From positions 1 to 35,776 of the forward strand of contig JAZRAN010000154.1 in assembly GCA_045634605.1 (NCBI GenBank): a stretch of 35,776 nucleotides of DNA. Reading direction: 5' to 3'. The stretch comes from Candidatus Stercoripulliclostridium sp. Its GTDB lineage: Bacteria > Bacillota > Clostridia > Christensenellales > DTU072. The translations under genes and the position numbers were made by a program. Shown here in pieces: positions 3,015 through 35,776 of the stretch. Under the pieces are notes generated by a model. The model did not search any database. It was not told where the DNA came from and worked only from the letters and a program-made list of their open reading frames with translations. How positions within the stretch are numbered: the stretch's first letter is position 1; the number at the start of each line of letters is the position of its first letter.

Positions 3015-4022
3015 ATGGCAGAAGGCACTACTTGGACAACTTACGACGCTAATAAGATGACGTCAAAAGAAATATATGGTAAGGTTCTTGCCGAGCTAGG
3101 CGAAACCAACAATAAAATCGTAGGAGTGACGGCAGACCTTGCTAAATCCACTAACATAGGCAACTTTGGCGATAGATTCCCGGAACGACTATTCAACGTA
3201 GGCATTGCGGAGCAAGACCTATTTGGCGTTGCTGCAGGATTGGCTAAGACGGGACTTATCCCCTTCGCATCCACTTTCGCAATTTTTGCTTGCTTGCGTG
3301 GTGGCGAACAAATCAGAACGGATATTGCATACCAAAATCTACCCGTAAAAGTTATTGCGACCCACGGCGGACTGAGTTTCGGTCCCGCAGGCTCTACCCA
3401 CCACTGCATAGAAGACTACGCAATTATGCGCGCTATACCTAATATGACGGTAGTTATCCCTGCGGACGGTTTTGAAACCGCCAAAGCAGTACGCGCTTGC
3501 GTAGATATCGATGGACCTTTCTATATGCGTGTTGGTCGTGGCTTTGAACCACCAATGCACGATAACGAAGATTTTGACTTTGAAATCGGCAAGGCAATGA
3601 TGCTAAAAGACGGTAGCGACATAACCGTTATAACTTGCGGTATCCCTACTCTCCAAGCAAGAGAAGCGGCAAAGGACCTAGAAGCGGAAGGTATTAGCGT
3701 AAGGGTACTAAATATGCACACTCTAAAGCCCATTGATAAAGAAGCGATTATGCAAGCGGTAGTAGATACAAGACGTATTCTTACCGTAGAAGAACATAAC
3801 GTTATAGGCGGTCTGGGCGATGCGGTCGCAGCGGTTATTGCGGAAAGCGGTAAGGGTTGCGCATTTACCAAACTAGGTATCCCGGACGAATATGGTGTAA
3901 TCGGTTATCCCGAAGATTTGTATGCAAGATATAAGCTAGACTCGACAGGCATTGCGGAAACCGTAAAAGAACTACTCGGCAAAGAAATAGAAGCCGACGA
4001 AGATTGGGAAGACGAAGATTAA
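3015..4022 (+). CDS. tkt: Transketolase, C-terminal (pyrimidine-binding) subunit
   Basis: 335 aa, with RLFNVGIAEQDLFGVAAGLA, THGGLSFGPAGSTHHCIEDYAIMRAIPNM and VRVLNMHTLKPIDKEAI. The RBS is AAGGAG and the gene sits 12 nt after the N-subunit stop. It ends in an acidic tail, EADEDWEDED. Confidence 0.95.
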   Translation: MAEGTTWTTYDANKMTSKEIYGKVLAELGETNNKIVGVTADLAKSTNIGNFGDRFPERLFNVGIAEQDLFGVAAGLAKTGLIPFASTFAIFACLRGGEQIRTDIAYQNLPVKVIATHGGLSFGPAGSTHHCIEDYAIMRAIPNMTVVIPADGFETAKAVRACVDIDGPFYMRVGRGFEPPMHDNEDFDFEIGKAMMLKDGSDITVITCGIPTLQAREAAKDLEAEGISVRVLNMHTLKPIDKEAIMQAVVDTRRILTVEEHNVIGGLGDAVAAVIAESGKGCAFTKLGIPDEYGVIGYPEDLYARYKLDSTGIAETVKELLGKEIEADEDWEDED

Positions 4023-22800: not shown

Positions 22801-25800
22801 CTAGTCCGCTTGCCTTCTTGGTAAATAGGTTATAGTTACGGTCAGCCGTTCCTTCCAATGCGAAATTGTACGCAACGGCCAAGGGGTTATTCTTAGGCAT
22901 ATTGTAAAGAGAGACGCCCGTTATAGAATATCCTTCCTTTAGTTCGTGCGCTATGACGTTTTCGGTGTCGAAGATGAATTGATTGTTTTCTAGCGATAAA
23001 CCTAACGTTTCATCGGTGTATAGCGCAGTGATTTGCAAGTTGTTTACAAAGAAGACTACTTCAAACTTTTGCTTTTCATAAGTGGGAAGTATGGTTATCT
23101 TGCTTTGTCCGTTTACAAACGCATCGTTGATTTCTATCTTCTTTTCTCCGCCGCCAAGAGCTGTCGTAGTGGTTGAGTACTTGTAACGCATGCCGTCCTT
23201 TTCGTATACGGTAGGTATGCTAATGCCGTTGACGTCAAGTTTAGAGAGATAATAACCCGCGTCGGAAACGAGCTTGAGTTCAAAGAGTTCGTGGTGGCTT
23301 ACTAACGTAATACCGGTAGATTCATATTGTCCACCGCTGGCTATAACGTATTCGATTGCGTATTGCTTGATAGCGTAGGTTACGTTTACTACTACGTTAC
23401 CGGTCATACTCGGTATAGTGAAAGTACGAGTACCGCTACCATCGTCCGCATCAAGACCGTTTTCGTTTTGTACTAGGCTTGATATAACTCCACCATCATT
23501 ATCCATAGTAATGGAAACGGACGTTATTCTATATCCGTTGGGAGCTGTTAAAGATATGGTTAGTTTGTCCGCAAATACCGCTTCTCCAAGCAATTGTCCT
23601 ACGTCGGAGAAGTTGCCTTCTACGTTAGTGAAGTACTCGCCGTACTCTTTGCCACTTACGTTCTTGTTGATGATTACGCCACTTACTGCGCTTACCTTTC
23701 TTACTACTTCGCCGTTTTGTACGATATCGTAGGTCTTAGCGAAGTCTCCGTTGAAGGTTACGTCATACTTCTTGTTTGCTAGCGTAATTACTATTTCCAA
23801 GTTAGAAGTTACGTGTAATTCGGTATAAGTTCCATAATCTTCTAGCGCATTTGCGATAACGGGCTTTTCATCACCGTTAATCATAACGCTTTCCATAACG
23901 TAACCGCGGTTGATATCAAGCTTAATCGTCATGCTTTGATTCCACTCAACAACGCTAGTGCTTAGTTGAGCAAGACCGCCCGTGAAACTATTTACTGTAA
24001 TGCTATAAGTATGGATGGTGAAAGCTACTTCACAATAAGTATCTTTCTTTACTTCGTAACTTTGACGCATAGTTGCATCTTCGTTTTCTATGCGCTTAGA
24101 TTCTCCGTTAACTTTGAAAGCGGAAATTCTATTGCCTTCTTCAACGTATCCGTTGAATGCGTTATGGGGCATTGCGGAGAATATTACGTTTGCGCCGTAA
24201 GTTACCTTTATGCCGTCTTCCGTTGCCCATATGGTTCCGGTGCTTAATTGACGTACCGCAAGCGTCCATAGTCCATCGGGAGCATTACCCGCTTCGGGCG
24301 CTTCGTCCAAAATAATAATTCCGGGAGCCCAAAGCAATACGTCGTCTACGTCATAGATAGCGTATTCACCGCCTAGGCTAGCTTGCATATCTACTTCAAA
24401 GGTTTGAATTTGATATTTTACGCTAATATCCAAGTCGGAATTGATAGTACCTACGTACGCATTATTTCTTAATGATTTGAGTCTATCTTCGCCGTTAACG
24501 TTAAATACACCGTGAGTATAACCTTCCCCGGGCATTGCTTTAATCGTAAAGTTCAAACCATGTTCATACTTGCCGTTTTCTAGAATTACGGTTGCGTTAG
24601 AATAAGGATTGGTAAATACGGGCTCAAGACTTCCGTTAGATAGCCACGGAGCGCCTTCGCTCTCTATGGTAAGAGTTTGCGTATAGGAATAAGTACGTCT
24701 CTTGAACTCTACGTTTACGGATTGAATATCTCTGGAAATTCCCTTTAAGATATATGAACCGCCGTTTTCGCCAATAGATTCGTTAGAGCCGGTCAAGTTA
24801 ATTCTTTCGGATTGAGTCTTGCCGTTGTCGTCAATATAGATGAGTTCAAATAGCGCGATATAGTATCCACGAGCCGTTCTTGGCGTAATAACGAACTTGA
24901 CGTTACTTCCGTGGATATAGCGCTTGGACGCATCGGGCGCAGAGCCGTTAATAGTAACTACGCCGTAAGAGTTGCTTTCTACGTCTATTGTCTTAAAGTT
25001 AGCGCTTTCATTGGTTGCGTTAACGTTAATTTGATATTCGTTGACGGCATATTCTACTCTAATGGTAATATTACCGCTTACTTCGTCTTTGAGCGTATAG
25101 AATCTTTGACTTAGGTCGTTAGCGGAAACGTTATCTTCCTTCCAATCATCAACTTCTACTCCGTTAACTTTTAGGGATGCAATATGATATCCTACGTCCG
25201 CTTTCATCATTAGAGAAATGATATCTCCAAGGCTTAGTTTTACTTCGCTTGCGGGACGATATGCGTCTTCCCCTTTCTTAACTAGCGTTTCTCCACCCAA
25301 AACCTTGTCAATAGTTATAGAGTATACCATCGGTGAGAATTCTACCGCTAGGTCAACGTTACCGGAAACGTAAAGTTGTAGTCTACCGGAAACGTATTCG
25401 CCACTTGCAATGGGCGTGCCTATTAGATTCGTAGTGGAAACCTTTTCTCCGTTAAGGATTATAGCGCTAATGTAGAAACCGTCGTTAGCGGTAATTTCTA
25501 CGGTCTTGGTTTCGCCGTAATTTACGTTAACGGTACCGGTCGTACCTACGCCACTCAAAGAGCCGTTTGCGCCATGAGTATACGTAAGTTCATATTGAAT
25601 AGGAGCAAATGATGCGGTAATCGTCAATTCGCCGGTTACGTATTCGCCCTTGAATTCATAATTGAGAACGCCGGAAACGTAGTTCTCATATTCGGTGCTC
25701 GTGAGTGGTTGATGTATTACGCTAGAACCTTCTACGGTAATAGCGAATGCGGAAACGTAATAACCTACGTTAGGAGTTAATCTTACGTTGAAAGATTCGT

Positions 25801-28800
25801 TCTTGCGTACTAAACTCTTATCCGTTGCTATTACGCCGTGTTGCGCGCCGGATTGAATGTTTACTGCGTAAACGATTTCTTCGAATACTGCGCTAACGAT
25901 TGCATCTTCTTTTATTGTTAAAGTATATTCGCCGTCAATTAAAGGAACTTCTTTACCGTTTATTACAAGAGTTTTTGCAGAACTTCCCGTGTTTGCGCTC
26001 AATGCAAATTTTACTTGACTGTTAACTTCAAGCGCGCTACCGGAAACAACTGCATTACCATTTCCGTCCGTAACGCTCAATACACCGTTACCTTCCACTC
26101 CGTAAGTAAGAACGTGTTCGCTTGCATTGGCGTCTTCGCCTTCAAAATAGACGTATACGTCTATTGCGGTAGTTACGTCGTAAACGAACAAGGTGGTTAC
26201 TTCATTGCCCAGCATATCGGTAGAAGACAATAGAGAATAATATCCGTTTAATTTGTTTTCTACGTATTCGCCTTCCAGCGGTAGATATTGGTAGGTTTCT
26301 CTTGCATCTTGATTCTTTACGATAATGTTGGCAAGAGAGAGTTCATATCCTTCGGATATGGTAACTGATACGTTGACGTCTCCGCCGTAAGAAACGGTAG
26401 CAACGTAAGTGTTGCCTATAACGCTTTCGTTGTTGATGCTTACTTCGTTATCGGCCTTATTGATTAGGTATACCTTGTAATCCACGCTAATCGGCAAGCA
26501 GTCGATTACTACGGAGTAACTGGCGTTTACGTTACTCAAAGTAATAACGTGCGACTTGGCAAAGAAGTTGGTCGTTTCGTCACGGTCAATGCCCGTATTT
26601 GACTTAACGTTAATCTTGTTGATGTAATAGCCTTCTTTCGCCTTTACTTCAAAGTCAACGGTAGATGCGTGTTCAATATTGTTAAAGGTATAGCCTTCGC
26701 CGTTGACTAGATTGATAGTGCTACCATTATAAGTTATGGAAGTATTGCCTTCTTTTTCTTCAAAACGTACGAAATAAGTAGTTCTTCTGAAAATAAACTT
26801 TACGTCGTAGTCTTTCTTTGCGGCGCTTACTTGGAATTCTCTGGCTAATTGTACGTCGTCAAAAGTTTGTTCTTCTCCGCCGTCGATAACTACTGCGTTT
26901 ACGTAATATCCGCTCGTAGTAGATGCTCTAACGCTAAACGCCTTGTTGTAACCGATAGTAAAGGGCGCGTCAACCGAACCTATGCCTTCGTATGAAGTCG
27001 TTACGTTATAGTATAATTCCGCATATTCAACCGCAAAGGTAACGTCACTTTCTATGCCGTCGATAGAAAGAGTCATCTTCGTTACTCTGTAATCGTTTAC
27101 GCCATCCTTGGGAGCTTGTCCGTTAACAAGGAATTCTCCGTTTTCTGCGTTCTTATATACGGTATATCCGTTTACCGCAACGTATGGGTCTACTATGGTG
27201 CCGTTAGCGGTAACTCTGCGGATATAGTAGCCGTCTTTTGCCGTAACGGAGAATCTGGGCTCGTTGCCCCTTAGGAAAGTTAAACCTTCGCTTTCCGCCA
27301 CCATTTCGCCATATTCGCTTTCCGCAGGAAGAGTTACTCTATACGAGAACTCGCGGTAAGTGATTACTACGTTTTGATTTTCGGTTACGTTTTCTATAAT
27401 GAGATTATAATACGTTGCTTCCGCGGGTACTTGTTGGTTTACGCCGTTGAGAGAAACGGATGCTATGTAATATTGTTTACTACTGGGTTTGTTTTCATTT
27501 TCGGGAACTATTTCAATAGAAATACCGGAGCCGTAGTTTACTTGGGTGAGTACGTTTTCACCAAGTTGACTTTGGGTTTCGTTGGTACCTACTATGCCAT
27601 AGGTGATAGTACCGTTATTGGTAGCGCCACTGCCGTTTGTTATAGATACGCTATATTCACTCAAAGTAAATACCGCTTCTATGCTGTAATCGGAACTTAT
27701 GATTGCATTAATCGTTACGTCATAATATCCGTCTTCACCCGCAAGGTTTTGACCGGAAGTGGTTGCGCCGTTAATGGTTACGGAAGAAAGCGCGTATCCT
27801 TCGGTAGGACGAATTCTAATAGCGTAATCTTTGGTAACGGGCATATCTACTCTGTTGGAAATGCTCTTTTCTATGGCTTCTTCGCCGGGGTTAGCCGTTA
27901 GAGAATAGATGGAACCGGAGCCGATTATGGAAACGGTTAGCGCCTTGGTGTTTTCTTCGAATACCGGCACGACGTATACAACGGGACTTTCTACCTTGAA
28001 GGTCTTATCTACTACCTTAGAAGTGGGAAGTCTGTCTGCGTCCGCAAGATACCAACCTTTAAAACTATAATTGGTCTTAACGGGAATTTCTTCCGGGAAA
28101 GAGCCGGTTACAGCGCCTGCAAGATTGTCTTGATAGTATGCGGTAACTACCCTACCGCTTGCGCCTAGTACGCCGTCTACGTTTTCTTGATATCCATTAG
28201 CGGGGTCGATAAAGGATGGGTCTTCGTTGTCACCTTTTAGGAATACTACCTTATAGATTTCCTTTTCCCAATACGCAACCAGCGTGGTGGGTTGAGTAAA
28301 CGTGGTGCTATTCTTTACTAATACGGGAGAGCCGTTTGCGTTAACTTCGCCGTTTTCGGCATACCAACCCTTAAAGGAATAACCCAACATAGTTAGGTAG
28401 GACGTATCTTCTACGTCGAATACTTGACCTATGGGCGTTTCGTAACTAACGTCGAATAGGTCGAATATCTTGTTGCCCATAGAAGTAAAACTTATATCGT
28501 TTTGGAGTTTTACAAAGTGCGCCTTTACGGAAATAGAATCAACGTATTCGTCGGGAGTAAAACTCAAAACGTATTCTCTTTGCGTGCCGGTGCGCGTAGA
28601 AATAAACTCAATAGCGTAATCTGCGCCCACGTGTACGAGTTTACCACCGCTCATTTCCGGGTCTAGACTTACCCAAGAATTGAGTTCTACGTTATAGACC
28701 GACCAGCCTACAAACTTATAGTCTTGTGAAATGGGAGAAACGCGTACCGTTGCGATTTCGTCCTTTTCATAGAAACTAAGAGCGTCCGTCGTGCCTATTA

Positions 28801-29635
28801 TTTCTCCATCGGGGGAAGTAGTGCATTCTATGCTGAAATCGGTTGCATACTTTTCGTACAAGGGGTAAATGTTGGTGTCTTTGGTTATATGAGTATAATC
28901 AACGTCCCATCCGATAAAACGATATCCGTACATTTGCATATTATGCTCGTCGGCGCGCGGAATCTTGATGGGAGACTCGTTGTAAGCAACTTGTTCTTCT
29001 CTTGCGGTAGTGCCGTCGGGATAATAGAATACTACGGAGTAAACCAATTTCTTGAACGTTGCGACAAGGCGCATACTCTTGGAAACCTGTTTGTCGAGCC
29101 TGTTAGCATTGGGGTTGCCGTCCGACCATCCGGCAAAATAATAACCTTCGTCGGGGATAGCTTCTACGCGAGTCGCATCCGCGCCTGCGCTTACGTTTTG
29201 AACGTTAACGCCGTCTATTCTACCGCCGGTAGATGCAATATATTCGACTTGTAATTCCGTGGGTACTACGTTAAAAGAGACCGTTTGCTTAAATCCACCA
29301 AAGTCCAAAACAACGCCGTCAACGACGCCTTCGGCGCTCGTGTCGAGACCGGTGACCACGAGTTCAGAAAGCGCAACTTGAGCAGACGAGCCGTCACTAT
29401 ACTTGACGGTTACGAAAACTTGCGATGGGTCTGCCCCAACGGAAATAAGCCCGTTATCGGGCGTAACGATAGCAACGACGTCGGGCGTTGTATGTTCCGT
29501 GACGTCCGCATATTGCGGTAATATAACCGCAGCCGCCACAACCGATGCAACTGCTACGACTAAAACGGCTATCATTGTGATGCCTAACATCCCGTTAAGG
29601 GAGAAACGTTTTCCTGTTACTCTTAATTTTGCCAT
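16892..29635 (-). CDS. Giant (4,247 aa) N-terminally membrane-anchored surface protein: InlB B-repeat / Listeria-Bacteroides repeat stalk, EF-hand-like Ca loops and a GLUG-motif C-terminal domain
   Basis: One uninterrupted ORF. I place the start at ATG 29635 (GGAG 8 nt upstream) rather than 29707. The TM helix is LGITMIAVLVVAVASVVAAAVIL. About 9 motifs resemble YYFAGWSDG, YRFIGWDVD, YSFKGWY or YVFEGWY. About 17 resemble GYHIASLKVNGVEV, GFYISAIILNGEKV or GYVMESVMINGDE. There are three DxNxNGVWDxxE loops and about ten GG[ILMA][VIA]G GLUG-like motifs. I see no LPXTG or SLH motif. Confidence 0.9.
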   Translation of the reverse strand: MAKLRVTGKRFSLNGMLGITMIAVLVVAVASVVAAAVILPQYADVTEHTTPDVVAIVTPDNGLISVGADPSQVFVTVKYSDGSSAQVALSELVVTGLDTSAEGVVDGVVLDFGGFKQTVSFNVVPTELQVEYIASTGGRIDGVNVQNVSAGADATRVEAIPDEGYYFAGWSDGNPNANRLDKQVSKSMRLVATFKKLVYSVVFYYPDGTTAREEQVAYNESPIKIPRADEHNMQMYGYRFIGWDVDYTHITKDTNIYPLYEKYATDFSIECTTSPDGEIIGTTDALSFYEKDEIATVRVSPISQDYKFVGWSVYNVELNSWVSLDPEMSGGKLVHVGADYAIEFISTRTGTQREYVLSFTPDEYVDSISVKAHFVKLQNDISFTSMGNKIFDLFDVSYETPIGQVFDVEDTSYLTMLGYSFKGWYAENGEVNANGSPVLVKNSTTFTQPTTLVAYWEKEIYKVVFLKGDNEDPSFIDPANGYQENVDGVLGASGRVVTAYYQDNLAGAVTGSFPEEIPVKTNYSFKGWYLADADRLPTSKVVDKTFKVESPVVYVVPVFEENTKALTVSIIGSGSIYSLTANPGEEAIEKSISNRVDMPVTKDYAIRIRPTEGYALSSVTINGATTSGQNLAGEDGYYDVTINAIISSDYSIEAVFTLSEYSVSITNGSGATNNGTITYGIVGTNETQSQLGENVLTQVNYGSGISIEIVPENENKPSSKQYYIASVSLNGVNQQVPAEATYYNLIIENVTENQNVVITYREFSYRVTLPAESEYGEMVAESEGLTFLRGNEPRFSVTAKDGYYIRRVTANGTIVDPYVAVNGYTVYKNAENGEFLVNGQAPKDGVNDYRVTKMTLSIDGIESDVTFAVEYAELYYNVTTSYEGIGSVDAPFTIGYNKAFSVRASTTSGYYVNAVVIDGGEEQTFDDVQLAREFQVSAAKKDYDVKFIFRRTTYFVRFEEKEGNTSITYNGSTINLVNGEGYTFNNIEHASTVDFEVKAKEGYYINKINVKSNTGIDRDETTNFFAKSHVITLSNVNASYSVVIDCLPISVDYKVYLINKADNEVSINNESVIGNTYVATVSYGGDVNVSVTISEGYELSLANIIVKNQDARETYQYLPLEGEYVENKLNGYYSLLSSTDMLGNEVTTLFVYDVTTAIDVYVYFEGEDANASEHVLTYGVEGNGVLSVTDGNGNAVVSGSALEVNSQVKFALSANTGSSAKTLVINGKEVPLIDGEYTLTIKEDAIVSAVFEEIVYAVNIQSGAQHGVIATDKSLVRKNESFNVRLTPNVGYYVSAFAITVEGSSVIHQPLTSTEYENYVSGVLNYEFKGEYVTGELTITASFAPIQYELTYTHGANGSLSGVGTTGTVNVNYGETKTVEITANDGFYISAIILNGEKVSTTNLIGTPIASGEYVSGRLQLYVSGNVDLAVEFSPMVYSITIDKVLGGETLVKKGEDAYRPASEVKLSLGDIISLMMKADVGYHIASLKVNGVEVDDWKEDNVSANDLSQRFYTLKDEVSGNITIRVEYAVNEYQINVNATNESANFKTIDVESNSYGVVTINGSAPDASKRYIHGSNVKFVITPRTARGYYIALFELIYIDDNGKTQSERINLTGSNESIGENGGSYILKGISRDIQSVNVEFKRRTYSYTQTLTIESEGAPWLSNGSLEPVFTNPYSNATVILENGKYEHGLNFTIKAMPGEGYTHGVFNVNGEDRLKSLRNNAYVGTINSDLDISVKYQIQTFEVDMQASLGGEYAIYDVDDVLLWAPGIIILDEAPEAGNAPDGLWTLAVRQLSTGTIWATEDGIKVTYGANVIFSAMPHNAFNGYVEEGNRISAFKVNGESKRIENEDATMRQSYEVKKDTYCEVAFTIHTYSITVNSFTGGLAQLSTSVVEWNQSMTIKLDINRGYVMESVMINGDEKPVIANALEDYGTYTELHVTSNLEIVITLANKKYDVTFNGDFAKTYDIVQNGEVVRKVSAVSGVIINKNVSGKEYGEYFTNVEGNFSDVGQLLGEAVFADKLTISLTAPNGYRITSVSITMDNDGGVISSLVQNENGLDADDGSGTRTFTIPSMTGNVVVNVTYAIKQYAIEYVIASGGQYESTGITLVSHHELFELKLVSDAGYYLSKLDVNGISIPTVYEKDGMRYKYSTTTTALGGGEKKIEINDAFVNGQSKITILPTYEKQKFEVVFFVNNLQITALYTDETLGLSLENNQFIFDTENVIAHELKEGYSITGVSLYNMPKNNPLAVAYNFALEGTADRNYNLFTKKASGLDVKLDDAILSMMDYHSTSQNVIRVYYTVAIDEHESIVQTYLVEATTENERVINKGSTITSAQIPTISGNRAFNVSASFSDRKDVTTHVYGTEATITVNVPAVGARRYSFQGFQEYKNGVWSYVTHDPDGTGITLQSNGQVLRYTMTSNRTFRAVFFRVYEITVQIHPEYKYFEGSFANNDPSSMKYRQYAGLTATANYTENLDRGVILPNVAGVQEILEDTDGNADATYTYRVLSGARLVLRGRDSISKNETKGYSYCVISEVGGKLTQREDGYTSGVETLEERLVYAYFKNTMMISFAMETVGSKVQSEGGSVTYAIDGATVGSLTNNSLSMSPNQTLTVNITPKESFRFDSMLELLPLSVPDAQGFKQFSSTYSPVTAKADGSVTMVYYNDKFEVINDVDAYLANGGRIGRVSVTFNHLAENSIFKIRFWKQISVTTRVEWFTDEPDSGSFATGYDIWFTDRSSGYENLSANKADANNRYKPQTITYDYNDRLFYDIGMTLTSLLGYKKYYQFVGYFINGINSYTQLGQNYPSTYEGDFVLNNLDNLPNGVNIVESTTATDGVQKTTYNVEIVAKFIPVYNVVVENEYVDSGNYLNPGQITASTIVYDESLTQYFTSSYSIESRLGADNSYRTDTAFQMLGKINTIDNSNKNHAGSSYNTWNDNMLTLSWIGGAESSDSFSFIAWQYYAYNKVTGTYEWRNIPYVDPNSQTNLVTKGTFTFPISCLFSSTYPAYIGIDESVMSGFNYDASQYDYNGNWISSSNISAIRIRPLFQKVENLTLVKSTALSTDTIFIDGQGEAEPKINSTSRSNGYFNYNTVQTLLHGEIPGYVFEGWYITENGNGGYQRLEATASESSYDKLVVEGSGLDATTYYLKTEEIKNVQGVGTGEYISYNYNPVTKQMQVLMDASFKIFARYVRVYTLSIRVSNVSGFSQVLTDAMPTLNCYQKVNGVWELVGEVSGNRMITIDNARVGTQYVFTLSTSYTGNINDSTYFNPLYDRFVGITSVNENNQNVWDGNNSTDAINSSIPKDGDLRDMILAKEWDEYNSAIELMEIVITANAEKTVNVNFESYGSLVLHNVYVGSAIKLPNELGEILKENDTNSVEESVDAQGNVAYYVNDGGVGDVDDVVDGIITINGIPILSGRTFDGQVSGDYANRIVQSMNVLDSDNISLGVNFDGSKISKKVQHVVYYGQASWNEYEYVYNGAWDAGEEYEDLNGNGVWDGAEPLTDSNANGVWDLGEAYTDSNSNGVWDGAEPLVDVKRFTTRVNNAISLYDYPFDGGDSLATAGDGSEAKPFKIRTVDHLRNVDNLYKGNNANLIYGYSGGQALRIHFKQVADINLNEVNNTLDRPLCMPFTSGGVYYSNGFNGVYDGGNFALYNVQLDLRSSGIKENVGIFSRIYRGGVVKNIALGRAYVAASANNVGIIAGSVFGGRIENVYYVEKGSPSISNTVNGSNFVGGLVGIISGESLEHGIITNSSIASFNIVATVGGSYLGQGSDYTGGAGGIVGSIGNYGSVQGKNGGYTVKGVSVVNGSSMGALGIGAGGIAGTIQASVSDTGLVAIDNVSAIDTRLASTYNKIAIGGIVGAVGANRTISNVSFTLSDSDSEVRSYSAPSGFDAPTWDENGNVRNYGGGGIAGYNNGTISGASVTTTGNYTLTLTGSMVGGLVGVNFGTVENATVKARLYTSRQKGTAYEGGTYGGMIGFNAGYLVGSGISGVSTATNDYNRTTAAYEIVTADNREYVPTSGSNGLMHGDAGADTSTIYAGGAVGYNIGTIDTVSVNAKLMVNRRSNDTLTSESYLAAVCGYSSNSNITSISGTAYIKFFHYLWVDQASDVNLPMYVYIGESSGNKKGETNVYVEASAEYVGGGTRYDPASIEAGFTWGYEGTNYLSGTAHVYFYDTDGYTSSSYAPDWNVSGTTESASSSSKVYAADCQKTGGDFQTLWKDAWNYQGYLRYVNVAQGKY
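19025..19195 (-). repeat. 45-nt (15-aa) tandem repeat x4 encoding EF-hand-like calcium-binding loops inside the giant gene
   Basis: The loops are DLNGNGVWDGAE (19150-19115), DSNANGVWDLGE (19105-19070) and DSNSNGVWDGAE (19060-19025), separated by 3-aa linkers. A degenerate upstream unit EYVYNGAWDAGE lies at 19195-19160. The DNA copies share ccgtcccatacgccgtt-type cores. Confidence 0.75.
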
Positions 29636-29674
29636 AATCCGGTCTCCAATGGATTTACGTCGATATATGGCACT

Positions 29675-29703
29675 ATTATATATAATAAAAAGCGCGCACG
29701 CAA
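29675..29703 (-). promoter_or_regulatory. Candidate promoter of the giant gene
   Basis: The minus strand reads TTGCGT (29703-29698), 17 nt, TATAAT (29680-29675). The predicted 5' UTR is about 33 nt and contains GGAG. Confidence 0.4.
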
Positions 29704-29716
29704 GCAACGTACGCGT
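29685..29716 (-). terminator. Rho-independent terminator after the GlmM-fusion gene
   Basis: The minus-strand RNA reads CGCGUACG-uugcuug-CGUGCGCG (8 bp including one G-U) followed by CUUUUUAUU. The stems are 29708-29715 / 29693-29700. Confidence 0.65.
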
Positions 29717-29761: not shown

Positions 29762-31708
29762 TTAGTCCCCGGAGCGCCTATCGACTGCCACTTGACAGGG
29801 CCTTGATATGACGAATTTGTTATCTTCCACGTCACTCGCTACGGTAGTACCGCCGGCAATAAAGCACCTATCCCCTACTTTCAGTGGGGCTATCAAGTTG
29901 ACGTTGCAACCGATAAACACGTCCTTACCTACTTCCGTTTTGCGTTTGACCTTGCCGTTATAATTTGCAAATACCGCGCCACAACCAACGTTCGTTCTTT
30001 CCCCTACCTTAGCATCGCCAACGTAAGCCAAGTGAGCGCATTTTACGCCGTCGCCAAGAGTAAAGTTTTTTATTTCCACAAAGTCACCTACTCTGCACCC
30101 GTTGCCGATTTCCGCCCCTTTCCTAAGAGTTGCAAAAGGTCCTATCGTAGAGTTTTTCCCCACCTTTGCTTGCTCGCAATTGCTAGAACGAATTTCCGTA
30201 TTATCTCCTATTTCCACGTCTAGCAAGTCGCAGTAAGAATAGATTTTTACGTTTTTACCTATTACACTGCTTCCGCGTATAACGTTAAAAGGATATATTA
30301 CGCTACCTTCCCCAATCTTTACCCCTTTTTCTATAAACGTGTTCTCGGGAGAAATTACAGTAACCCCCGTATATTCTTCTATGTTTACTCTTTGGGTATC
30401 CGTTTTAACGCTTTTAGTATTCTCTTTTGGCAAATTATTATTTATGGCGCCAATTACGTAATCCTTTATTTCTTCCACCTTGGCTCTTACCAAATCTTCA
30501 TTTTCCCCTTCCACCAATATTCTTATTTTAGGTTCCGTCCCACTCGCTCTAACGACTACTCTCACCCCACAGCCTTCTATTTTTTGCAAAAAGTTGCTAC
30601 TTCCGTTGACTTCTTCAAAAGATTTCTTTTCTTTCTCCGTAGCCACCACAAAGGTTTCTACGCAAGGATAATCTAGGTAATCTACCCTTTCTTCCAAACC
30701 CTTTTCCGCATCGGCAAGCGTTACCAACAAGGAAATTAATATGCCGTCCCCTGTTTCCGCCCATTTTCTTGCTATTACGTGTCCGCTATTTTCCCCGCCT
30801 AGCAATAGACCGCTTTTTACCATTTCTTCGTACACGAATTTATCCCCTACGTTTGCCCTTACAAACGTCACTCCACGCCCGGCAAACGCTTTTTCCAATC
30901 CTACGTTAGAATTAATCGTACCCACTACGCCACTTGCGCCCAAATATTCGCTTAGAGCGTAAAGAATAGCGTCCCCGCTATACACTCGACCGTCTTTTAC
31001 GCAAATTACCCTATCTCCATCTCCGTCATAAGCAAACGCTAGGTCGTAATCCCCTTTTCTTTCTTCTTCTAGCAAAGGGTCCAAACACGTCGCTCCACAG
31101 TTTACGTTAATTTTTTCTCCGTCATACTCATCGCGCAAAGCCGTTACCACGCAACCTAAATCTTCAAAAATTCTTTTTGCCGTTATTGCGGTTGCGCCAT
31201 AACACACGTCAAGCAATATTTTCTTACCCCTTATTTTATCGCCTACGATATTTTTTAGGTAATCTTCGTATTTGTCCGTCCCAACCAAACACTTAACGCC
31301 CCTTTCTCGCGCCCCCACAGGCTCGATAGCGCGCGTAATTAACGTTTCTATCTCTTTCTCCGCAAAAGCGGAAACCTTCGCTCCTTGCCCCGAAAAAAGC
31401 TTTATCCCATTGTATTCGGGCGGATTATGGCTTGCGGAAATCATTATCCCCAAATTGCACTCGTTGTACTTTGTAAGATACGCAACCGCAGGCGTTGGCG
31501 CTATACCCACGTCTAACACACGCATCCCATAACTTGATAAACGCAACGCAAGCGTTTCCGCTATCTTTTTACCGCTAGTACGGCTATCTCTCCCTATTAA
31601 AACTTTAATTTTCCCGTACTTTTGATATATTGCCGACGCAAATTTAAAAATAAATTCATCGTCAAAGCACTCCGCCTTCGCTCTTATTCCATCGGTGCCA
31701 AAACGCAT
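29762..31708 (-). CDS. glmM: Fusion protein: phosphoglucosamine-mutase-like domain plus GlmU-type left-handed beta-helix acetyltransferase domain (no uridyltransferase domain)
   Basis: 648 aa. The N-terminal ~425 aa carry FGTDGIRA, ISASHNP (phosphoserine loop), AYDGDGDRV (Mg site), GGENSGH and RASGTEPKIRI. The C-terminal ~200 aa read GPFATLRKGAEIGNGCRVGDFVEIKNFTLGDGVKCAHLAYVGDAKVGERTNVGCGAVFANYNGKVKRKTEVGKDVFIGCNVNLIAPLKVGDRCFIAGGTTV, which closely parallels the E. coli GlmU C-terminal domain as I recall it. Confidence 0.85.
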   Translation of the reverse strand: MRFGTDGIRAKAECFDDEFIFKFASAIYQKYGKIKVLIGRDSRTSGKKIAETLALRLSSYGMRVLDVGIAPTPAVAYLTKYNECNLGIMISASHNPPEYNGIKLFSGQGAKVSAFAEKEIETLITRAIEPVGARERGVKCLVGTDKYEDYLKNIVGDKIRGKKILLDVCYGATAITAKRIFEDLGCVVTALRDEYDGEKINVNCGATCLDPLLEEERKGDYDLAFAYDGDGDRVICVKDGRVYSGDAILYALSEYLGASGVVGTINSNVGLEKAFAGRGVTFVRANVGDKFVYEEMVKSGLLLGGENSGHVIARKWAETGDGILISLLVTLADAEKGLEERVDYLDYPCVETFVVATEKEKKSFEEVNGSSNFLQKIEGCGVRVVVRASGTEPKIRILVEGENEDLVRAKVEEIKDYVIGAINNNLPKENTKSVKTDTQRVNIEEYTGVTVISPENTFIEKGVKIGEGSVIYPFNVIRGSSVIGKNVKIYSYCDLLDVEIGDNTEIRSSNCEQAKVGKNSTIGPFATLRKGAEIGNGCRVGDFVEIKNFTLGDGVKCAHLAYVGDAKVGERTNVGCGAVFANYNGKVKRKTEVGKDVFIGCNVNLIAPLKVGDRCFIAGGTTVASDVEDNKFVISRPCQVAVDRRSGD

Positions 31709-31756
31709 ATAGCTCCTTTATAGCTACAATATATGCGAATATAAAATTTTGTTGTT

Positions 31757-31785
31757 AAAAAAAACGCGCCGTCCAAGACAGCGCG
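31757..31785 (-). terminator. Rho-independent terminator after mtnN
   Basis: The minus-strand RNA reads CGCGCUGUC-uug-GACGGCGCG (9 bp, one G-U) followed by UUUUUUUU. Confidence 0.75.
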
Positions 31786-31808
31786 TAAGTGTTTTTATTC
31801 AAGTAAGT

Positions 31809-32486
31809 TTATAAGAGCGTAACTGCTTTTAGTAGCGTGTTTGCGTTGATTTCGCAAGCCCTGAGCGCAAATTCTTCATACGTCATATTAGAGCCGTCAC
31901 CGGCAGAGTCGCTTATTACTTTGAGAGCGCCGAATTTTACGCCCGCGATATAGCAAACTTGAGCGCAAGCTCCGCATTCCATATCACAAGCGACAGCGTT
32001 AAAGGTTTCTGCTATGCGCTTTGACTCTACGTCACTCGCAACGAACTTATCTCCGGTTGCGACACGCCCTAAAACAGCGCCATCCGCCGACTTTAATATC
32101 GAGTTCGATACTTCTTCATCCGCATCAAAATAAACCTTATTCAGCCCGCTAATGAGCCCTATGGGGTCGCCGAGAGCAGTAGTGTCGCTATCGTATTGAC
32201 AAACGCTACTTACGGAAAGTACGCTTAGCGGTTTTAATTTACCTATACCGCCTGCAATACCGGTGTTTATGACGCACTCTACCCCGTAACGCTCTATCAT
32301 TATAGCGGTAGTGAAAGCAGCGTTTACTTTGCCTATGCCGGCAAGAGAAAGAACTATTTCCTTATCTCCTACTTTACCTATGGTAAAGAGTTTACCTTTA
32401 TATTCTTCGGTATAAGTGTCCGAAAGCCCACGGATGATTCCATGGGCTTCTTTTTGCATTGCTACTAATAAACCTATCTTTTTCAT
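31809..32486 (-). CDS. mtnN: 5'-methylthioadenosine/S-adenosylhomocysteine nucleosidase
   Basis: 225 aa with MKKIGLLVAMQKEA, LAGIGKVNAAFTTA, INTGIAGGIG and ACDMECGACAQVC, typical of Pfs/MtnN (PNP_UDP_1 fold). Its ATG overlaps the upstream stop (TAATG). Confidence 0.85.
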   Translation of the reverse strand: MKKIGLLVAMQKEAHGIIRGLSDTYTEEYKGKLFTIGKVGDKEIVLSLAGIGKVNAAFTTAIMIERYGVECVINTGIAGGIGKLKPLSVLSVSSVCQYDSDTTALGDPIGLISGLNKVYFDADEEVSNSILKSADGAVLGRVATGDKFVASDVESKRIAETFNAVACDMECGACAQVCYIAGVKFGALKVISDSAGDGSNMTYEEFALRACEINANTLLKAVTLL

Positions 32487-33415
32487 TATTCGGTATAAGT
32501 TTCTACTACGATTGCGCCTGCTTTTACTTCTACGGGCTTACCTAGGTTGGATACTACTGCAACGAAAGCTTCGCCGATTTTGCCGTTAACAACTGCTTCG
32601 GAAGTATCAACTTGTTGACCTTCTTCCGTGGCTACTTCGTCAGCCTTCTTTGCTAACACCTTCATAATTGCGGTGGAAATGGGGCTGTCGCTGTCGTTAA
32701 TCTTTAGCGACTTGGAAGTAGTAACGAGATTTCCTTCCGCATCAAGAGATAAACCGCTATAACTTACTAGGTATACTCTTTCCGGAATCTTTACAAACGA
32801 ACCTACGCCCGCTTTGTTGAGTTCTTCCTTTAAGTCATTGGTTAGGCTAGCAAGTTCTATGTAAGTAACTATTCTTAGCGTGCCGTCTTCCTTAATGCTT
32901 ACTTCGCTAATAGATGCGTTGAGTTCTTGCAAGAATTCTACTGCTTCGTCACTGCTTTCAGCGCCGTCCGCTACCATTTGATTAAAGATATATGCAAGAG
33001 TGGTATCCTTGTACTCAATGTTTTGCTTGGTAGGATAGATAATCTTATCGGTTACGATAGAAGAATAGTCGATATCGCCGTTTTCTTTCTTTGCAACACT
33101 ACTATCCGCTATGTTTGATTCTGCCTTACCTTGTTCTTCGGTTGCGTCAAATTGATTTTCCAAAATCTTGGTTTCATCGGGATTCATAAGTTCGTTTAGG
33201 AACTTAGGTATCTCTTTGAGTTTGATATCTGCAAGACCTAAAGATGCTAGCGTTTCGCCTTCAAACAACTCTAAATCAGCAAGACCTAAGTCTGCCGGAG
33301 TCATGTTTAGAACGATAAGACCGCCTGCTACTACGACGATTACGAGTACTAAAATAGTTACCAAAGGAACGATAACGCATCCTTTAATAAATCCGGGGGT
33401 TGATGGTTGTGCCAT
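32486..33415 (-). CDS. Membrane-anchored hypothetical protein (310 aa; one N-terminal TM helix, acidic extracytoplasmic domain)
   Basis: I place the start at ATG 33415 (AAAGGAGAAAAATT-ATG) rather than the track's 33484. The TM helix is CVIVPLVTILVLVIVVVAGGLIVL. An LGLADL/LGLADI duplicate sits just after the TM helix. I recognise no catalytic motifs. Confidence 0.7.
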   Translation of the reverse strand: MAQPSTPGFIKGCVIVPLVTILVLVIVVVAGGLIVLNMTPADLGLADLELFEGETLASLGLADIKLKEIPKFLNELMNPDETKILENQFDATEEQGKAESNIADSSVAKKENGDIDYSSIVTDKIIYPTKQNIEYKDTTLAYIFNQMVADGAESSDEAVEFLQELNASISEVSIKEDGTLRIVTYIELASLTNDLKEELNKAGVGSFVKIPERVYLVSYSGLSLDAEGNLVTTSKSLKINDSDSPISTAIMKVLAKKADEVATEEGQQVDTSEAVVNGKIGEAFVAVVSNLGKPVEVKAGAIVVETYTE

Positions 33416-33480
33416 AATTTTTCTCCTTTTAGTTGTCCTTCTTTGTTTTATTATTGCACGAAGTTGATTCGTTGTCAATA

Positions 33481-35776
33481 TCAATTCTCAATTGCGCCTA
33501 CGAGTTTTGCGTAGAGTTCTTTACTGTTTGGAACGGGGTCTCCGGGCTTAATTTCCGGCTCGTAGTTAACGAAGTCCGTACACGTTAATACGCAAGGATT
33601 GGTAACGTGCAACGGCTTTGACGGCTTAACTACCAGATTCATCAAGTCTACTATTGATGCGAGTTGTCCCTTAGGAACGCCGTTTTCATCTTCTAGGGGT
33701 ATTCCAAAGTTACTCATAGGAGAATTTGTATTAAAGTAAATTCTATCGGTATCAACTTCCGCAATTAGACCCAGCGCAACAAAAGCAAAGCTTGCGTATT
33801 CTTTACCGCCATACTTATAGAATAAACCATCGTATTCCGGCTGTTTGATAAACGAATCTACAACCTTTGCAACCGTTTCCGCAAAAATATCTCTCAAACT
33901 GCCGGATATAATGTCCGTACCAACCAAACTTAATAGCGCTTGAGCAAATACTCCCTTGAATTCTTCACGTTGTTTCCAGTTGTACACGTCCATAAATCCT
34001 TCAAAATTAAAATCTACTTTAAAAGGTTTATCCATAGCGTTTTCATGGAACCAACTAGTAACCATTTGTATTGCCGCGCCACCTTGTTGCTTAAAGATAT
34101 TATTCCTAAACGTAAACGATGCGTCTTCCGCCCTACCCGGCTCGTGTTGTATGCTTACGCCGTTGTTATCGTTTTCGCCAAAAATACAGCCTTCTACCAA
34201 CACGTGAAGGGCGTTCCTAAAAGACAATCCTTCGTTAAAGCCGGAAAGTTGACAATACTTTACTTCTATGGGGCAGTAACACCAATAAAAGTTGATAAAT
34301 CCCAACACACTAGTAGACTCTTCATATAAAGTTGAGCCTATTGCAACAACGTCTTCTATGACGATTTTACCTTTACCGGTTTCTATAAACTCCCAATGCC
34401 CATCGCCATATTTATCTGCATCAATAATCCAGTTGCGGAAACGTCCTTCATCTACAACGGGGAAGTTTGTGCCGTCAATTTTAAATCCGTTACCATACAA
34501 GTCGCTACGAAGACCTGACGTATCCGTAGGATAAAGGTCGGCTTGCATAACTATATCGTTGTGATTAATATCAACTACTCTCTTGAATTCTTCCCAATCA
34601 TAAACGTTAACGGCGTCTCTTTCTCTAAGATTGAAAGTGAAACTGCGTTTTACTCTTTGTTGGAGAAGGTTGTTTACTTTGAGTACCGCCGTAAGCGTTA
34701 CGGATTTACCTTTGCTTTCTTCCAGGAATTCAATATTTACGTCTTGAGAATTTTCCACTCTCGTAATATTTACTAACCCTTCTTCGTTAACCAACCACTC
34801 TACGTCAAAAGCATTGGACTTATCGTCCAAACCGAACCTATACACGTTAGTCCTATTGCCGTTTTCATCCAGCCAATATCTACCCCAAGTACGAGTTAAT
34901 TGTATGCCTAATTTTTGGTCGGCGGTGCCTAATTCCAACTCAAATGCAATGGGGTTTTCTTTTACGATAACTTCTTTTTCTATGATTACGCCGTTGTAGG
35001 TTGCTCTTATCATTGAGCTACCTGCCTTCAAAGGAATAATCATACCCGTTTTAGGCTCAAGTTCTAATACTTCTGCGTTAGAAACACTATACTCTGCGCC
35101 TTCTACGATTTCTCCACTTGCTAAAATGCCCACAATGGGGAAATATCCGCCGTTACGAGTATACATTACGGACGAAAGTCCTATAAACCCTACTTCATTT
35201 TCTCCTACCGAGAAGACTTCTACGTTTACTACGTTCGCGCCTAACGTAAAGGAATATACGTTACCTTCTACCGCGCTTACAACTACTTCGTCACTAAGCG
35301 CGTAAGTAGCCTTCAAATAGTCGGTAGTAATTTCATTTGCGCTACAATACAACGTGCTAGAAGATACTATAGCGTTCTCAGTGTTAAGGTCAAAATAGTC
35401 TTTGACGGTGTTGCCGTCTTTGTCTACTGCGCTGGCGGTTATTCTAGTAACGCCCTTTCCTACGATTTTAATTTCTCCGTTTGCGCTAATTTCCGCAACA
35501 GCCGTATTTGTAGAAGACCATTGTACGTCGTTGTTACGCAAAGCATCTACGGGATTGATATCAACAAAATATCTACCGCCGACAACCGCATCAACGTGCT
35601 CTCCTACAAATTCTCCGTTTGCATCATAGATTTCTATCGTCTCGATGGAGTCGCTAGTAACGTAAATGGTGATTTCTCTAAACACGTTTACGTTTGCTTT
35701 CGCTCTGATTTCCAACTTACATACGCCGATTTTTATAGGAATTATGGAGTAGCGATTGCTTTCCCCTATTCTTTCC
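33481..35776 (-). CDS. Large Big_2-domain / putative beta-helix surface protein; the 5' end runs off the window
   Basis: The frame stays open upstream of the track's TTG (35715) to the window edge: my translation gives ...ERIGESNRYSIIPIKIGVCK-LEIRAK.... Big_2-like segments are VQWSSTNTAVAEISANGEIKIVGKGVTRITASAVD and YSVSNAEVLELEPKTGMIIPLKAGSSMIRATY. The C-terminal half has LYGNGFKIDGTNF and repeated beta-helix-like turns. It ends with a TGA stop. Confidence 0.8.
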   Translation of the reverse strand, partial: ERIGESNRYSIIPIKIGVCKLEIRAKANVNVFREITIYVTSDSIETIEIYDANGEFVGEHVDAVVGGRYFVDINPVDALRNNDVQWSSTNTAVAEISANGEIKIVGKGVTRITASAVDKDGNTVKDYFDLNTENAIVSSSTLYCSANEITTDYLKATYALSDEVVVSAVEGNVYSFTLGANVVNVEVFSVGENEVGFIGLSSVMYTRNGGYFPIVGILASGEIVEGAEYSVSNAEVLELEPKTGMIIPLKAGSSMIRATYNGVIIEKEVIVKENPIAFELELGTADQKLGIQLTRTWGRYWLDENGNRTNVYRFGLDDKSNAFDVEWLVNEEGLVNITRVENSQDVNIEFLEESKGKSVTLTAVLKVNNLLQQRVKRSFTFNLRERDAVNVYDWEEFKRVVDINHNDIVMQADLYPTDTSGLRSDLYGNGFKIDGTNFPVVDEGRFRNWIIDADKYGDGHWEFIETGKGKIVIEDVVAIGSTLYEESTSVLGFINFYWCYCPIEVKYCQLSGFNEGLSFRNALHVLVEGCIFGENDNNGVSIQHEPGRAEDASFTFRNNIFKQQGGAAIQMVTSWFHENAMDKPFKVDFNFEGFMDVYNWKQREEFKGVFAQALLSLVGTDIISGSLRDIFAETVAKVVDSFIKQPEYDGLFYKYGGKEYASFAFVALGLIAEVDTDRIYFNTNSPMSNFGIPLEDENGVPKGQLASIVDLMNLVVKPSKPLHVTNPCVLTCTDFVNYEPEIKPGDPVPNSKELYAKLVGAIEN

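Follow-up and report, generated by a model that had tools for sequence, protein, structure and literature searches.

A phosphoglucosamine mutase fused to the acetyltransferase domain of GlmU in uncultured Clostridia

Introduction

How is the synthesis of UDP-N-acetylglucosamine (UDP-GlcNAc) completed in a bacterium in which the acetyltransferase half of GlmU is joined to GlmM and the uridyltransferase half is missing? The question is raised by a gene in a 35,776-nucleotide (nt) stretch of DNA, here called the window, from Candidatus Stercoripulliclostridium sp. (assembly GCA_045634605.1, contig JAZRAN010000154.1). Its product of 648 amino acids (aa) consists of a GlmM-type phosphoglucosamine mutase followed by the left-handed beta-helix of GlmU. 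The component enzymes are well known; what is new is the architecture and the change that it implies at the end of the pathway; no description of a natural GlmM-acetyltransferase fusion, of a split GlmU in Clostridia or of a bypass of GlmU by GalT was found in the literature searched. The four activities leading to UDP-GlcNAc are packaged differently in the archaeal ST0452-type nucleotidylyltransferase/acetyltransferase (TIGR03992) and in the eukaryotic enzymes GNA1, AGM1, and UAP1; in eukaryotes a GNAT enzyme acetylates the 6-phosphate. To our knowledge, no fusion of mutase and acetyltransferase occurs in either the ST0452 type or the eukaryotic route.

The window is contig C154 of the source genome, G000 (1.6 Mb, 260 contigs, 83.5% complete). 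It was compared with G068, a congeneric genome (99% complete, in 20 contigs), and with a sample of 121 genomes from the same order.

Structure and authenticity of the fusion gene

The fusion open reading frame (ORF) begins with ATG and is preceded by a Shine-Dalgarno sequence; terminator-like hairpins separate it from the neighbouring genes. Its features are as follows:

29762..31708, minus strand: whole fusion gene, 648 codons and the stop codon at 29762-29764 (ORF list of the window, Pfam and NCBIfam domains)
30449..31708, minus strand: GlmM-type phosphoglucosamine mutase, residues 1-420, with four alpha-D-phosphohexomutase domains (TIGR01455, PDB, Foldseek, motifs)
31430-31432, minus strand: codon of the phosphoserine S93 in the SASHNP loop of the mutase
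31010-31027, minus strand: metal loop D228-R233, DGDGDR of the mutase
30371..30448, minus strand: inter-domain linker, residues 421-446, GAINNNLPKENTKSVKTDTQRVNIEEYT, variable across the family and of low predicted local distance difference test score (pLDDT)
29765..30370, minus strand: GlmU-type glucosamine 1-phosphate (GlcN-1-P) N-acetyltransferase left-handed beta-helix, residues 447-648 (TIGR01173, PDB, residues)
30032-30034, minus strand: codon of the catalytic His559 of the acetyltransferase half
31713..31719, minus strand: Shine-Dalgarno sequence AAAGGAG, 4 nt 5' of the fusion ATG (sequence read directly)
31764..31786, minus strand: terminator-like hairpin separating the pfs-like gene from the fusion gene (10-bp stem, 7 G-C pairs, T-run)
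29693..29715, minus strand: terminator-like hairpin just past the fusion stop codon (9-bp stem, 6 G-C pairs, T-run)

The initial annotation, made from the DNA letters, had described this ORF as a GlmM-type mutase fused to the GlmU beta-helix, and both Pfam and NCBIfam agree with it: PGM_PMM_I to IV are matched by residues 2-415 and Hexapep repeats by residues 446-623. The linker of ca. 25 aa and the limits that it gave for the beta-helix (residues 445-648, DNA 29765-30376) are correct as well.

A join of two contigs in assembly, or a frameshifted pseudogene, could in principle produce such an ORF. The uninterrupted 648-aa frame, however, is found with 98% identity and the same flanking genes in two independent metagenome assemblies, ERZ28633434 and ERZ27297634, and the same collinear architecture is common to 34 clusters of full-length proteins (P0001-P0034; 44-98% identity, 100% coverage). 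In an alignment of 19 fusion homologs, on which residue conservation was scored, the linker varies, while the catalytic residues of both halves stay invariant; such a pattern of purifying selection on both halves is not expected of a pseudogene or a chimera, and the gene carries a good ribosome-binding site and a terminator. A frameshift or an assembly join may therefore be taken as excluded, on comparison with other assemblies and homologs rather than with reads, and we regard an artefact of this kind as extremely improbable.

Relatives of the protein carry the label 'Clostridia bacterium' in NCBI records, and the public names of such proteins are uninformative as to the fusion: 'hypothetical protein' for MBQ8178423.1 and 'phosphoglucosamine mutase' for MDY5345284.1, a fusion in the reverse order. 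A single-sequence search of genome contigs gave distant relatives only. In a representative library of 1.84 billion proteins, only ca. 4-6 clusters at 50% identity show the domain order of the window's fusion, and ca. 8 show the reverse order.

The mutase and acetyltransferase halves

Residues 3-418 cover positions 1-440 of the 442 positions of the glmM profile TIGR01455 (NCBIfam) with a score of 340.2 bits, GlmM being by far the best mutase family, as the next model, PMM/PGM, gives 127 bits. In a PDB search the mutase aligned over its full length with GlmM structures (2.8e-65); structures of stand-alone GlmM include those of B. subtilis (7OJR), B. anthracis (3PDK), and S. aureus (6GYZ). GlmM crystal structures are also the best structural matches of the fusion model found by Foldseek, with template modelling (TM) scores of 0.81-0.85; in this AlphaFold2 monomer model (mean pLDDT 80.9) the mutase has a pLDDT above 90. 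The four motifs listed in the initial annotation are all present, i.e. the phosphoserine loop SASHNP, the Mg2+ loop DGDGDR, the sugar loop GGENSGH (GGExSGH), and the phosphate loop RASGTEP (RxSGTEP), and the residues S93; D228, D230, D232, R233; E306, S308, H310; R387, S389, T391, and E392 are invariant in the 19 homologs. In comparison with stand-alone GlmM (TIGR01455), residues 1-420 of the fusion align end to end and keep the four signature loops, but the fusion has an acetyltransferase added at its C-terminus and does not reach the equivalog cut-off.

This last point speaks against an unqualified assignment as GlmM: the mutase half gives 340.2 bits where the TIGR01455 equivalog cut-off is 447.55 bits, a cut-off passed by the reverse-order fusion from G069 (473.6 bits). 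The specificity for glucosamine phosphates consequently rests on the best-family match, the conservation of the motifs, and the fusion partner. The initial annotation, which had called the mutase half somewhat divergent, was right in this; it had drawn the sugar specificity mainly from the partner, to which the family match and the motifs are now added.

The acetyltransferase half corresponds to GlmU without its first domain. Residues 412-643 match positions 213-444 only of the 452 positions of the GlmU profile TIGR01173 (NCBIfam), and no match to the N-domain (positions 1-212, with the LxxGxGTRM uridylyltransferase motif) was found anywhere in the fusion protein, which at 648 aa leaves no room for it; the absence of the uridyltransferase domain noticed in the initial annotation is thereby borne out. 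GlmU C-domains from the PDB match the beta-helix over its whole length (2e-52); GlmU structures include E. coli 1HV9/2OI6, Y. pestis 3FWW, and M. tuberculosis 3D8V. Residues R529, E545, K547, H559, Y562, N573, N582, K588, and R636 align with R333, E349, K351, H363, Y366, N377, N386, K392, and R440 of 3FWW, and all nine are invariant in the 19 homologs. GlmU residue numbers are read from this aligned 456-aa Y. pestis structure, whose numbering we take to be equal to that of E. coli GlmU, and the residues presumably have the catalytic and binding roles ascribed to them in GlmU. Compared with bacterial GlmU, residues 447-648 are homologous to the full C-terminal beta-helix with the substrate-binding and catalytic residues kept, but the N-domain of ca. 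230 aa is missing and a full GlmM takes its place, so that steps 2 and 3 of the pathway are coupled instead of steps 3 and 4.

The linker is 25-45 aa long across the 19 aligned fusions, ca. 25 aa in that of the window, and residues 426-461 are predicted to be disordered (pLDDT below 50). In the monomer model the beta-helix has moderate pLDDT, falling to 42-60 in its C-terminal part, as expected for a segment that packs on neighbouring subunits. One chain thus carries two catalytic modules, both intact, with a flexible linker between them.

Predicted reaction sequence

With both active sites intact and invariant, the conversion of glucosamine 6-phosphate (GlcN-6-P) through GlcN-1-P to N-acetylglucosamine 1-phosphate (GlcNAc-1-P) in one polypeptide, as proposed in the initial annotation, is predicted here too, and the gene probably encodes a functional bifunctional GlmM/GlcN-1-P acetyltransferase. 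From what is known of the two families, the GlmM domain would convert GlcN-6-P into GlcN-1-P by a ping-pong mechanism with phospho-Ser93 and Mg2+, and the beta-helix would transfer the acetyl group of acetyl-coenzyme A onto the amine of GlcN-1-P, with His559 as the general base. The beta-helix presumably trimerises as in GlmU; since solved GlmM structures are dimeric, the fusion may assemble into hexamers or into a lattice of greater size. The tether would fix the expression of the two activities at 1:1 and place acetylation beside the mutase; as phosphohexomutase equilibria favour the 6-phosphate, a tethered irreversible acetyltransferase should pull the flux forward. GlcNAc-1-P would then be released and uridylylated in trans by a protein other than a GlmU N-domain.

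The supply of GlcN-6-P may itself be atypical in some of these genomes. Full-length GlmS is missing from G000, G068, and G034, where a protein of ca. 349 aa matches only the SIS isomerase half (profile positions ca. 252-602):

G000, C34:12034-13038: short GlmS-like gene, SIS half only
G068, C4:8759-9769: short GlmS-like gene, SIS half only
G034, C19: short GlmS-like gene, SIS half only

GlcN-6-P may in this case come from an ammonia-dependent enzyme of the deaminase type or from salvage. GlmS is complete in G095 and G066.

Loss of the GlmU N-domain in the order

The architecture of GlmU is very heterogeneous across the order, and about half of the sampled genomes have lost its N-domain. The 121 genomes are distributed as follows:

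47 of 121 genomes: full-length GlmU (GlmU profile scoring)
54 of 121 genomes: C-terminal half of GlmU only, matching the profile from positions ca. 207-293 onward (from ca. 207-262 in all but one)
5 of 121 genomes: strong N-domain-only gene (GlmU profile scoring)
15 of 121 genomes: no match to the GlmU profile at E<=1e-40

Stand-alone genes for the GlmU N-domain, coding for ca. 245-260 aa with E values of 1e-55 to 1e-76, occur in G044, G100, G041, G035, G084, and G014 (contig C53).

In the source genome no GlmU-type match was found beside the fusion and no GlmM-type gene apart from a PGM-like gene of 589 codons on C12; the second glmM and the canonical glmU whose presence would have undermined the initial annotation are absent from the 99%-complete G068 as well. 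When the ORFs of G000 were searched at maximum sensitivity with an order-specific hidden Markov model (HMM) of the N-domain, only GalU (1.2e-8) and GlgC (1.4e-3) were returned, so that a hidden diverged N-domain was rejected. G068 carries the same fusion, and no GlmU N-domain was found in it. There is also no relic of GlmU at the ancestral glmU-pth locus: unrelated genes precede pth in G000.

Two limits apply to these absences. The source genome is only 83.5% complete and lies in 260 contigs, which leaves space for a canonical glmU or a stand-alone N-domain gene in its unassembled part, and outside 13 acetyltransferase-only genomes the absence of the N-domain was judged at E<=1e-40 only. In those 13, G068 included, no GlmU-like N-domain was found at E<=1e-5; the 11 that are neither G000 nor G068 are mostly 95-100% complete, and G068 consists of 20 contigs. 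That the gene escaped assembly in G000 is, against this background, very improbable.

Origin of the fusion

Among the 121 genomes, the full-length fusion in the domain order of the window was found in the same genus only, the G068 protein being 48% identical to it and having the same neighbours. In the other two genera of the family (G034, G095) glmM is directly followed by a separate acetyltransferase gene; in G034 this second gene codes for 333 aa, and there is a 16-nt overlap between its start and the glmM stop. In other parts of the order the acetyltransferase gene is found directly upstream of glmM, abutting it in G066, overlapping it by 4 nt in G108, and 20 nt apart from it in G110, while families f36 and f11 have fusions in the reverse order, acetyltransferase-GlmM, of 665-690 aa.

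A maximum-likelihood tree of the acetyltransferase domain places the fusions of the window's type in a clade supported 97/97, together with two database proteins and the unfused genes of G034, G095, and G012; most reverse-order fusions group in a separate clade with 100/100 support, and a third, distant group holds both domain orders. Judged by the well-supported branches, the GlmM-first order must have arisen at least three times and the reverse one at least twice. The fusion is thus a late step of a wider phenomenon, in which glmM and the acetyltransferase came together repeatedly, in either order. The fusion arose from adjacent genes within one Clostridia family, and the reverse-order fusions arose independently in other families of the order.

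Many of the 'short GlmU' genes keep N-terminal extensions of 110-170 aa. Individually these give no significant match, but in seven genomes they map, weakly and consistently, to positions ca. 85-127 of the order-specific N-domain profile. They are read as decayed remnants of the N-domain, and the 25-aa linker of the window's fusion as what is left after trimming of such a remnant. The origin of the fusion would then comprise three steps: decay of the uridyltransferase half of GlmU, arrival of the leftover acetyltransferase gene directly downstream of glmM, and deletion of the stop codon together with the decayed remnant.

Two database proteins show other combinations of these domains: P0128 (886 aa) comprises GlmM, an NTP_transferase domain, and the GlmU beta-helix, i.e. 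GlmM joined to a complete GlmU, and in P0217 (617 aa) GlmM is fused to a GNAT acetyltransferase domain.

Candidates for the last step of UDP-GlcNAc synthesis

The initial annotation had left uridylylation to a separate enzyme. A reaction in trans agrees with all that is described above; a stand-alone GlmU N-domain as its catalyst does not, since profile searches found none in G000 or G068. The sugar-1-phosphate nucleotidyltransferases of G000 are GlgC/GlgD and GalU only, and the last step is therefore probably not performed by a split-off GlmU N-domain.

Several other candidates were considered and rejected. The eukaryote-type UAP (PF01704) was found in only one of 27 genomes, G074, and in neither G000 nor G068; GlmR/YvcK (PF01933) is absent from 26 of the 27, G000 and G068 among these. 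An NTP-transferase of ca. 235 aa, similar to ManC, archaeal GlmU-N, or MurU, is absent from G000, G068, G066, G108, G110, G074, and G080, and was found in G095, G034, G069, G096, G107, G050, and G012. The glgC and glgD genes, on contig C240, are part of a glycogen operon with glgB.

The enzymes left are GalU and a class II GalT. The single galU of G000 is split over the ends of contigs C247 (3' end) and C123, whose adjacency follows from the 47-aa overlap of the two pieces, and it is followed by clpC, as in G068. The class II GalT gene (GalT2) is on C156 and adjoins a galactokinase-like gene. An N-acetylhexosamine 1-kinase encoded on C19 matches B. longum NahK at 1.5e-88 and belongs to a cluster of nahK, a small-protein gene, and galE. 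The set resembles the bifidobacterial pathway for galacto-N-biose and lacto-N-biose (GNB/LNB; NahK, BlGalT2/LnpC, GalE), in that G000 encodes close homologs of NahK, class II GalT, and GalE. In the bifidobacterial pathway the N-acetylhexosamine 1-phosphate receives uridine monophosphate (UMP) from a UDP-sugar by exchange, with no pyrophosphorylase involved. Class II GalT of B. longum (BlGalT2) prefers N-acetylated hexosamine 1-phosphates and exchanges UMP with UDP-sugars (preprint 10.64898/2026.09.13.751320), its Michaelis constant (Km) for N-acetylgalactosamine 1-phosphate (GalNAc-1-P) being 50-fold below the value with galactose 1-phosphate (Gal-1-P) (10.64898/2026.09.13.751320). By analogy, GalU would make UDP-glucose, and the class II GalT would exchange its UMP onto GlcNAc-1-P as BlGalT2 does, GlcNAc-1-P being a hub fed de novo by the fusion and by NahK salvage. 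In G095 glmM, the acetyltransferase gene, and then directly the nahK cluster with galE form one cluster.

The distribution of these genes among genomes with the acetyltransferase only and with full-length GlmU points in the same direction:

GalT2 present: 38/54 acetyltransferase-only vs 18/47 full-length GlmU genomes (Fisher p 0.0014)
GalU and GalT2 both present: 36/54 acetyltransferase-only vs 6/47 full-length GlmU genomes (Fisher p 2.6e-8)
Families with GalU and GalT2 in the majority of genomes: 13/21 acetyltransferase-only vs 4/19 full-length GlmU (Fisher p 0.012)

Besides the E<=1e-40 threshold by which absence of the N-domain was judged in most genomes, four points weigh against UMP exchange by GalT as the last step. 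The Fisher tests ignore phylogeny. The galT-galK adjacency in G000 is the ordinary Leloir arrangement; unlike in the GNB/LNB pathway, galT adjoins galK and not nahK-galE, and a role in de novo UDP-GlcNAc synthesis there is hypothetical. The kinetics in the preprint cover GalNAc-1-P and Gal-1-P, and GlcNAc-1-P stands on the product side of the pathway reaction only (10.64898/2026.09.13.751320). Finally, seven acetyltransferase-only genomes have neither GalU nor GalT2, i.e. three of family f33, with 100%-complete genomes of ca. 1 Mb among them, G108, G074, which has UAP, and two ambiguous ones of f22, so that at least one other solution exists, which may possibly be used here too. Because of the genomes with neither gene and of tests blind to kinship, the exchange is a leading hypothesis and not a finding. 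For G000, our analysis makes it possible, at somewhat less than an even chance, that GalU and the class II GalT move UMP from UDP-glucose onto GlcNAc-1-P. Its extension to about half of the order, where GlcNAc-1-P would arise de novo from GlmM and a free or fused GlmU acetyltransferase as well as by NahK salvage, and UDP-GlcNAc would be finished by UMP exchange on class II GalT rather than by the GlmU pyrophosphorylase, with GalU regenerating UDP-glucose, is more doubtful.

An explanation nearly as likely as the exchange, and tentative in its turn, is that a diverged GalU-type pyrophosphorylase uses GlcNAc-1-P and UTP directly, with no part played by GalT. GalU is the only enzyme of the UTP-sugar-1-phosphate type detected in G000 and is present in 45 of the 54 acetyltransferase-only genomes; G068 has two paralogs, of which one belongs to a surface-glycopolymer cluster. 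It is also unusually diverged, the TIGR01099 cut-off being reached in 12 of 45 acetyltransferase-only genomes vs 32 of 33 with full-length GlmU, but these low scores may reflect fast evolution in small genomes, as GlmM and GalT2 score lower there too, and nine acetyltransferase-only genomes have no GalU match at E<=1e-40. The second GalU gene of G068 is at L052 (C4) 3024-3896; among its neighbours are an ORF of 748 codons, read without a family search as pyruvyl-transferase-like, and ABC-transporter genes read as Wzm/Wzt-like.

Alternatively, the uridylyltransferase could belong to an unrecognised family common to all acetyltransferase-only lineages, with GalU and GalT as bystanders. The complete f33 genomes of ca. 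1 Mb agree with this, as they lack GalT2, with GalU absent from G066, G032, and G094 and present in G120, and show no detectable N-domain, ca. 235-aa NTP-transferase, or UAP (tested in G066). So does the conserved protein of ca. 176 aa encoded between nahK and galE, at the position that galT has in bifidobacteria. On the other hand, a signature of the nucleotidyltransferase type is missing from every candidate, an all-beta fold is predicted for the 176-aa protein, whose similarity to CBM9 is weak and whose model is poor (pLDDT 53), and the lineages differ in their solution, some having the ca. 235-aa NTP-transferase and G074 having UAP. We consider such a common family rather unlikely.

Some further observations concern the genes named here. 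The cluster at C19:1238-3918 (minus strand) of G000 comprises nahK, the gene for a protein of ca. 176-190 aa, galE, and an aminotransferase gene, and is conserved in L076, L077, L080, and L030 (G095); in some relatives it is preceded by a gene for a GH20 hexosaminidase. The start of the ca. 176-aa protein overlaps the nahK stop, and the gene sits where galT sits in the bifidobacterial lnp operon. The protein has no family match, its similarity to CBM9 apart, and its poor model comes from a single sequence. In G066, G032, and G094 glmM is accompanied by an acetyltransferase gene of 220 codons, and in G066 no GlmU N-domain, GalU, GalT2, UAP, or ca. 235-aa NTP-transferase was detected. A 282-aa protein of G066 (L040 1025-1873, minus strand), whose gene adjoins pth at the ancestral position of glmU, has a C-terminal hexapeptide region and an unassigned N-terminus of 185 aa. 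G074 has a stand-alone acetyltransferase gene of ca. 200 codons (L046, C7:48227-49132), and its UAP (PF01704, 2.8e-36), the only one among the 27 genomes, fills the same gap in another way.

Neighbouring genes

Directly downstream of the fusion lies a giant ORF of 4271 codons (16892-29707, minus strand), whose product carries a membrane anchor at its N-terminus and contains numerous repeated modules; the same adjacency was found in G068 and in both independent assemblies. Upstream are genes for a Pfs-like nucleosidase (31809-32486, minus strand; PNP_UDP_1 match 3.3e-39) and for a membrane-anchored protein of 332 aa that matched no family (32486-33484, minus strand), both syntenic in G068.

This position, conserved in both genomes and both independent assemblies directly upstream of a giant surface-protein gene, together with a mutase half below the GlmM equivalog cut-off, could mean that the fusion is not a housekeeping enzyme and provides an N-acetylated hexosamine 1-phosphate, possibly of another amino sugar, for a specialised surface glycan, e.g. 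on the 4271-aa protein. However, it is the sole GlmM-like and GlmU-acetyltransferase-like gene in G000 and G068, and peptidoglycan synthesis would otherwise be left with no source of GlcNAc-1-P except NahK salvage; moreover, the GlmU residues contacting GlcN-1-P are all invariant and terminator-like hairpins part the fusion from both its neighbours. A role confined to a special glycan is accordingly improbable, and a housekeeping one is preferred.

Relation to known fusions and significance

Close counterparts of the window's protein are the reverse-order fusions (G069, G096, G080, G107; P0122 and others; MDY5345284.1), which share with it both domains, the lack of a uridyltransferase, and the logic of the pathway, but have the opposite domain order and an acetyltransferase from a separate clade (100/100).

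As a natural 'Rosetta stone', the fusion confirms that GlmM and the acetyltransferase act in concert, and it is, as predicted, a ready-made bifunctional catalyst for the conversion of GlcN-6-P into GlcNAc-1-P. GlmU is treated as an enzyme universal and essential in bacteria, with both its functions in one protein, and as a target for antibacterials; the locus shows otherwise. In one abundant group of uncultured Clostridia the halves of GlmU are separated, the uridyltransferase being lost and the acetyltransferase welded to the preceding enzyme, GlmM, and a pathway reconstructed from such genomes would mistakenly be rated incomplete for UDP-GlcNAc synthesis. The question thereby raised is which enzyme makes UDP-GlcNAc in these bacteria, and GalU and the class II GalT are its named candidates. 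If UMP exchange by GalT is the true answer, an enzyme of 'galactose' metabolism would have an unrecognised essential role, and there would be a third way, after the bacterial and the eukaryotic ones, to complete the hexosamine pathway.

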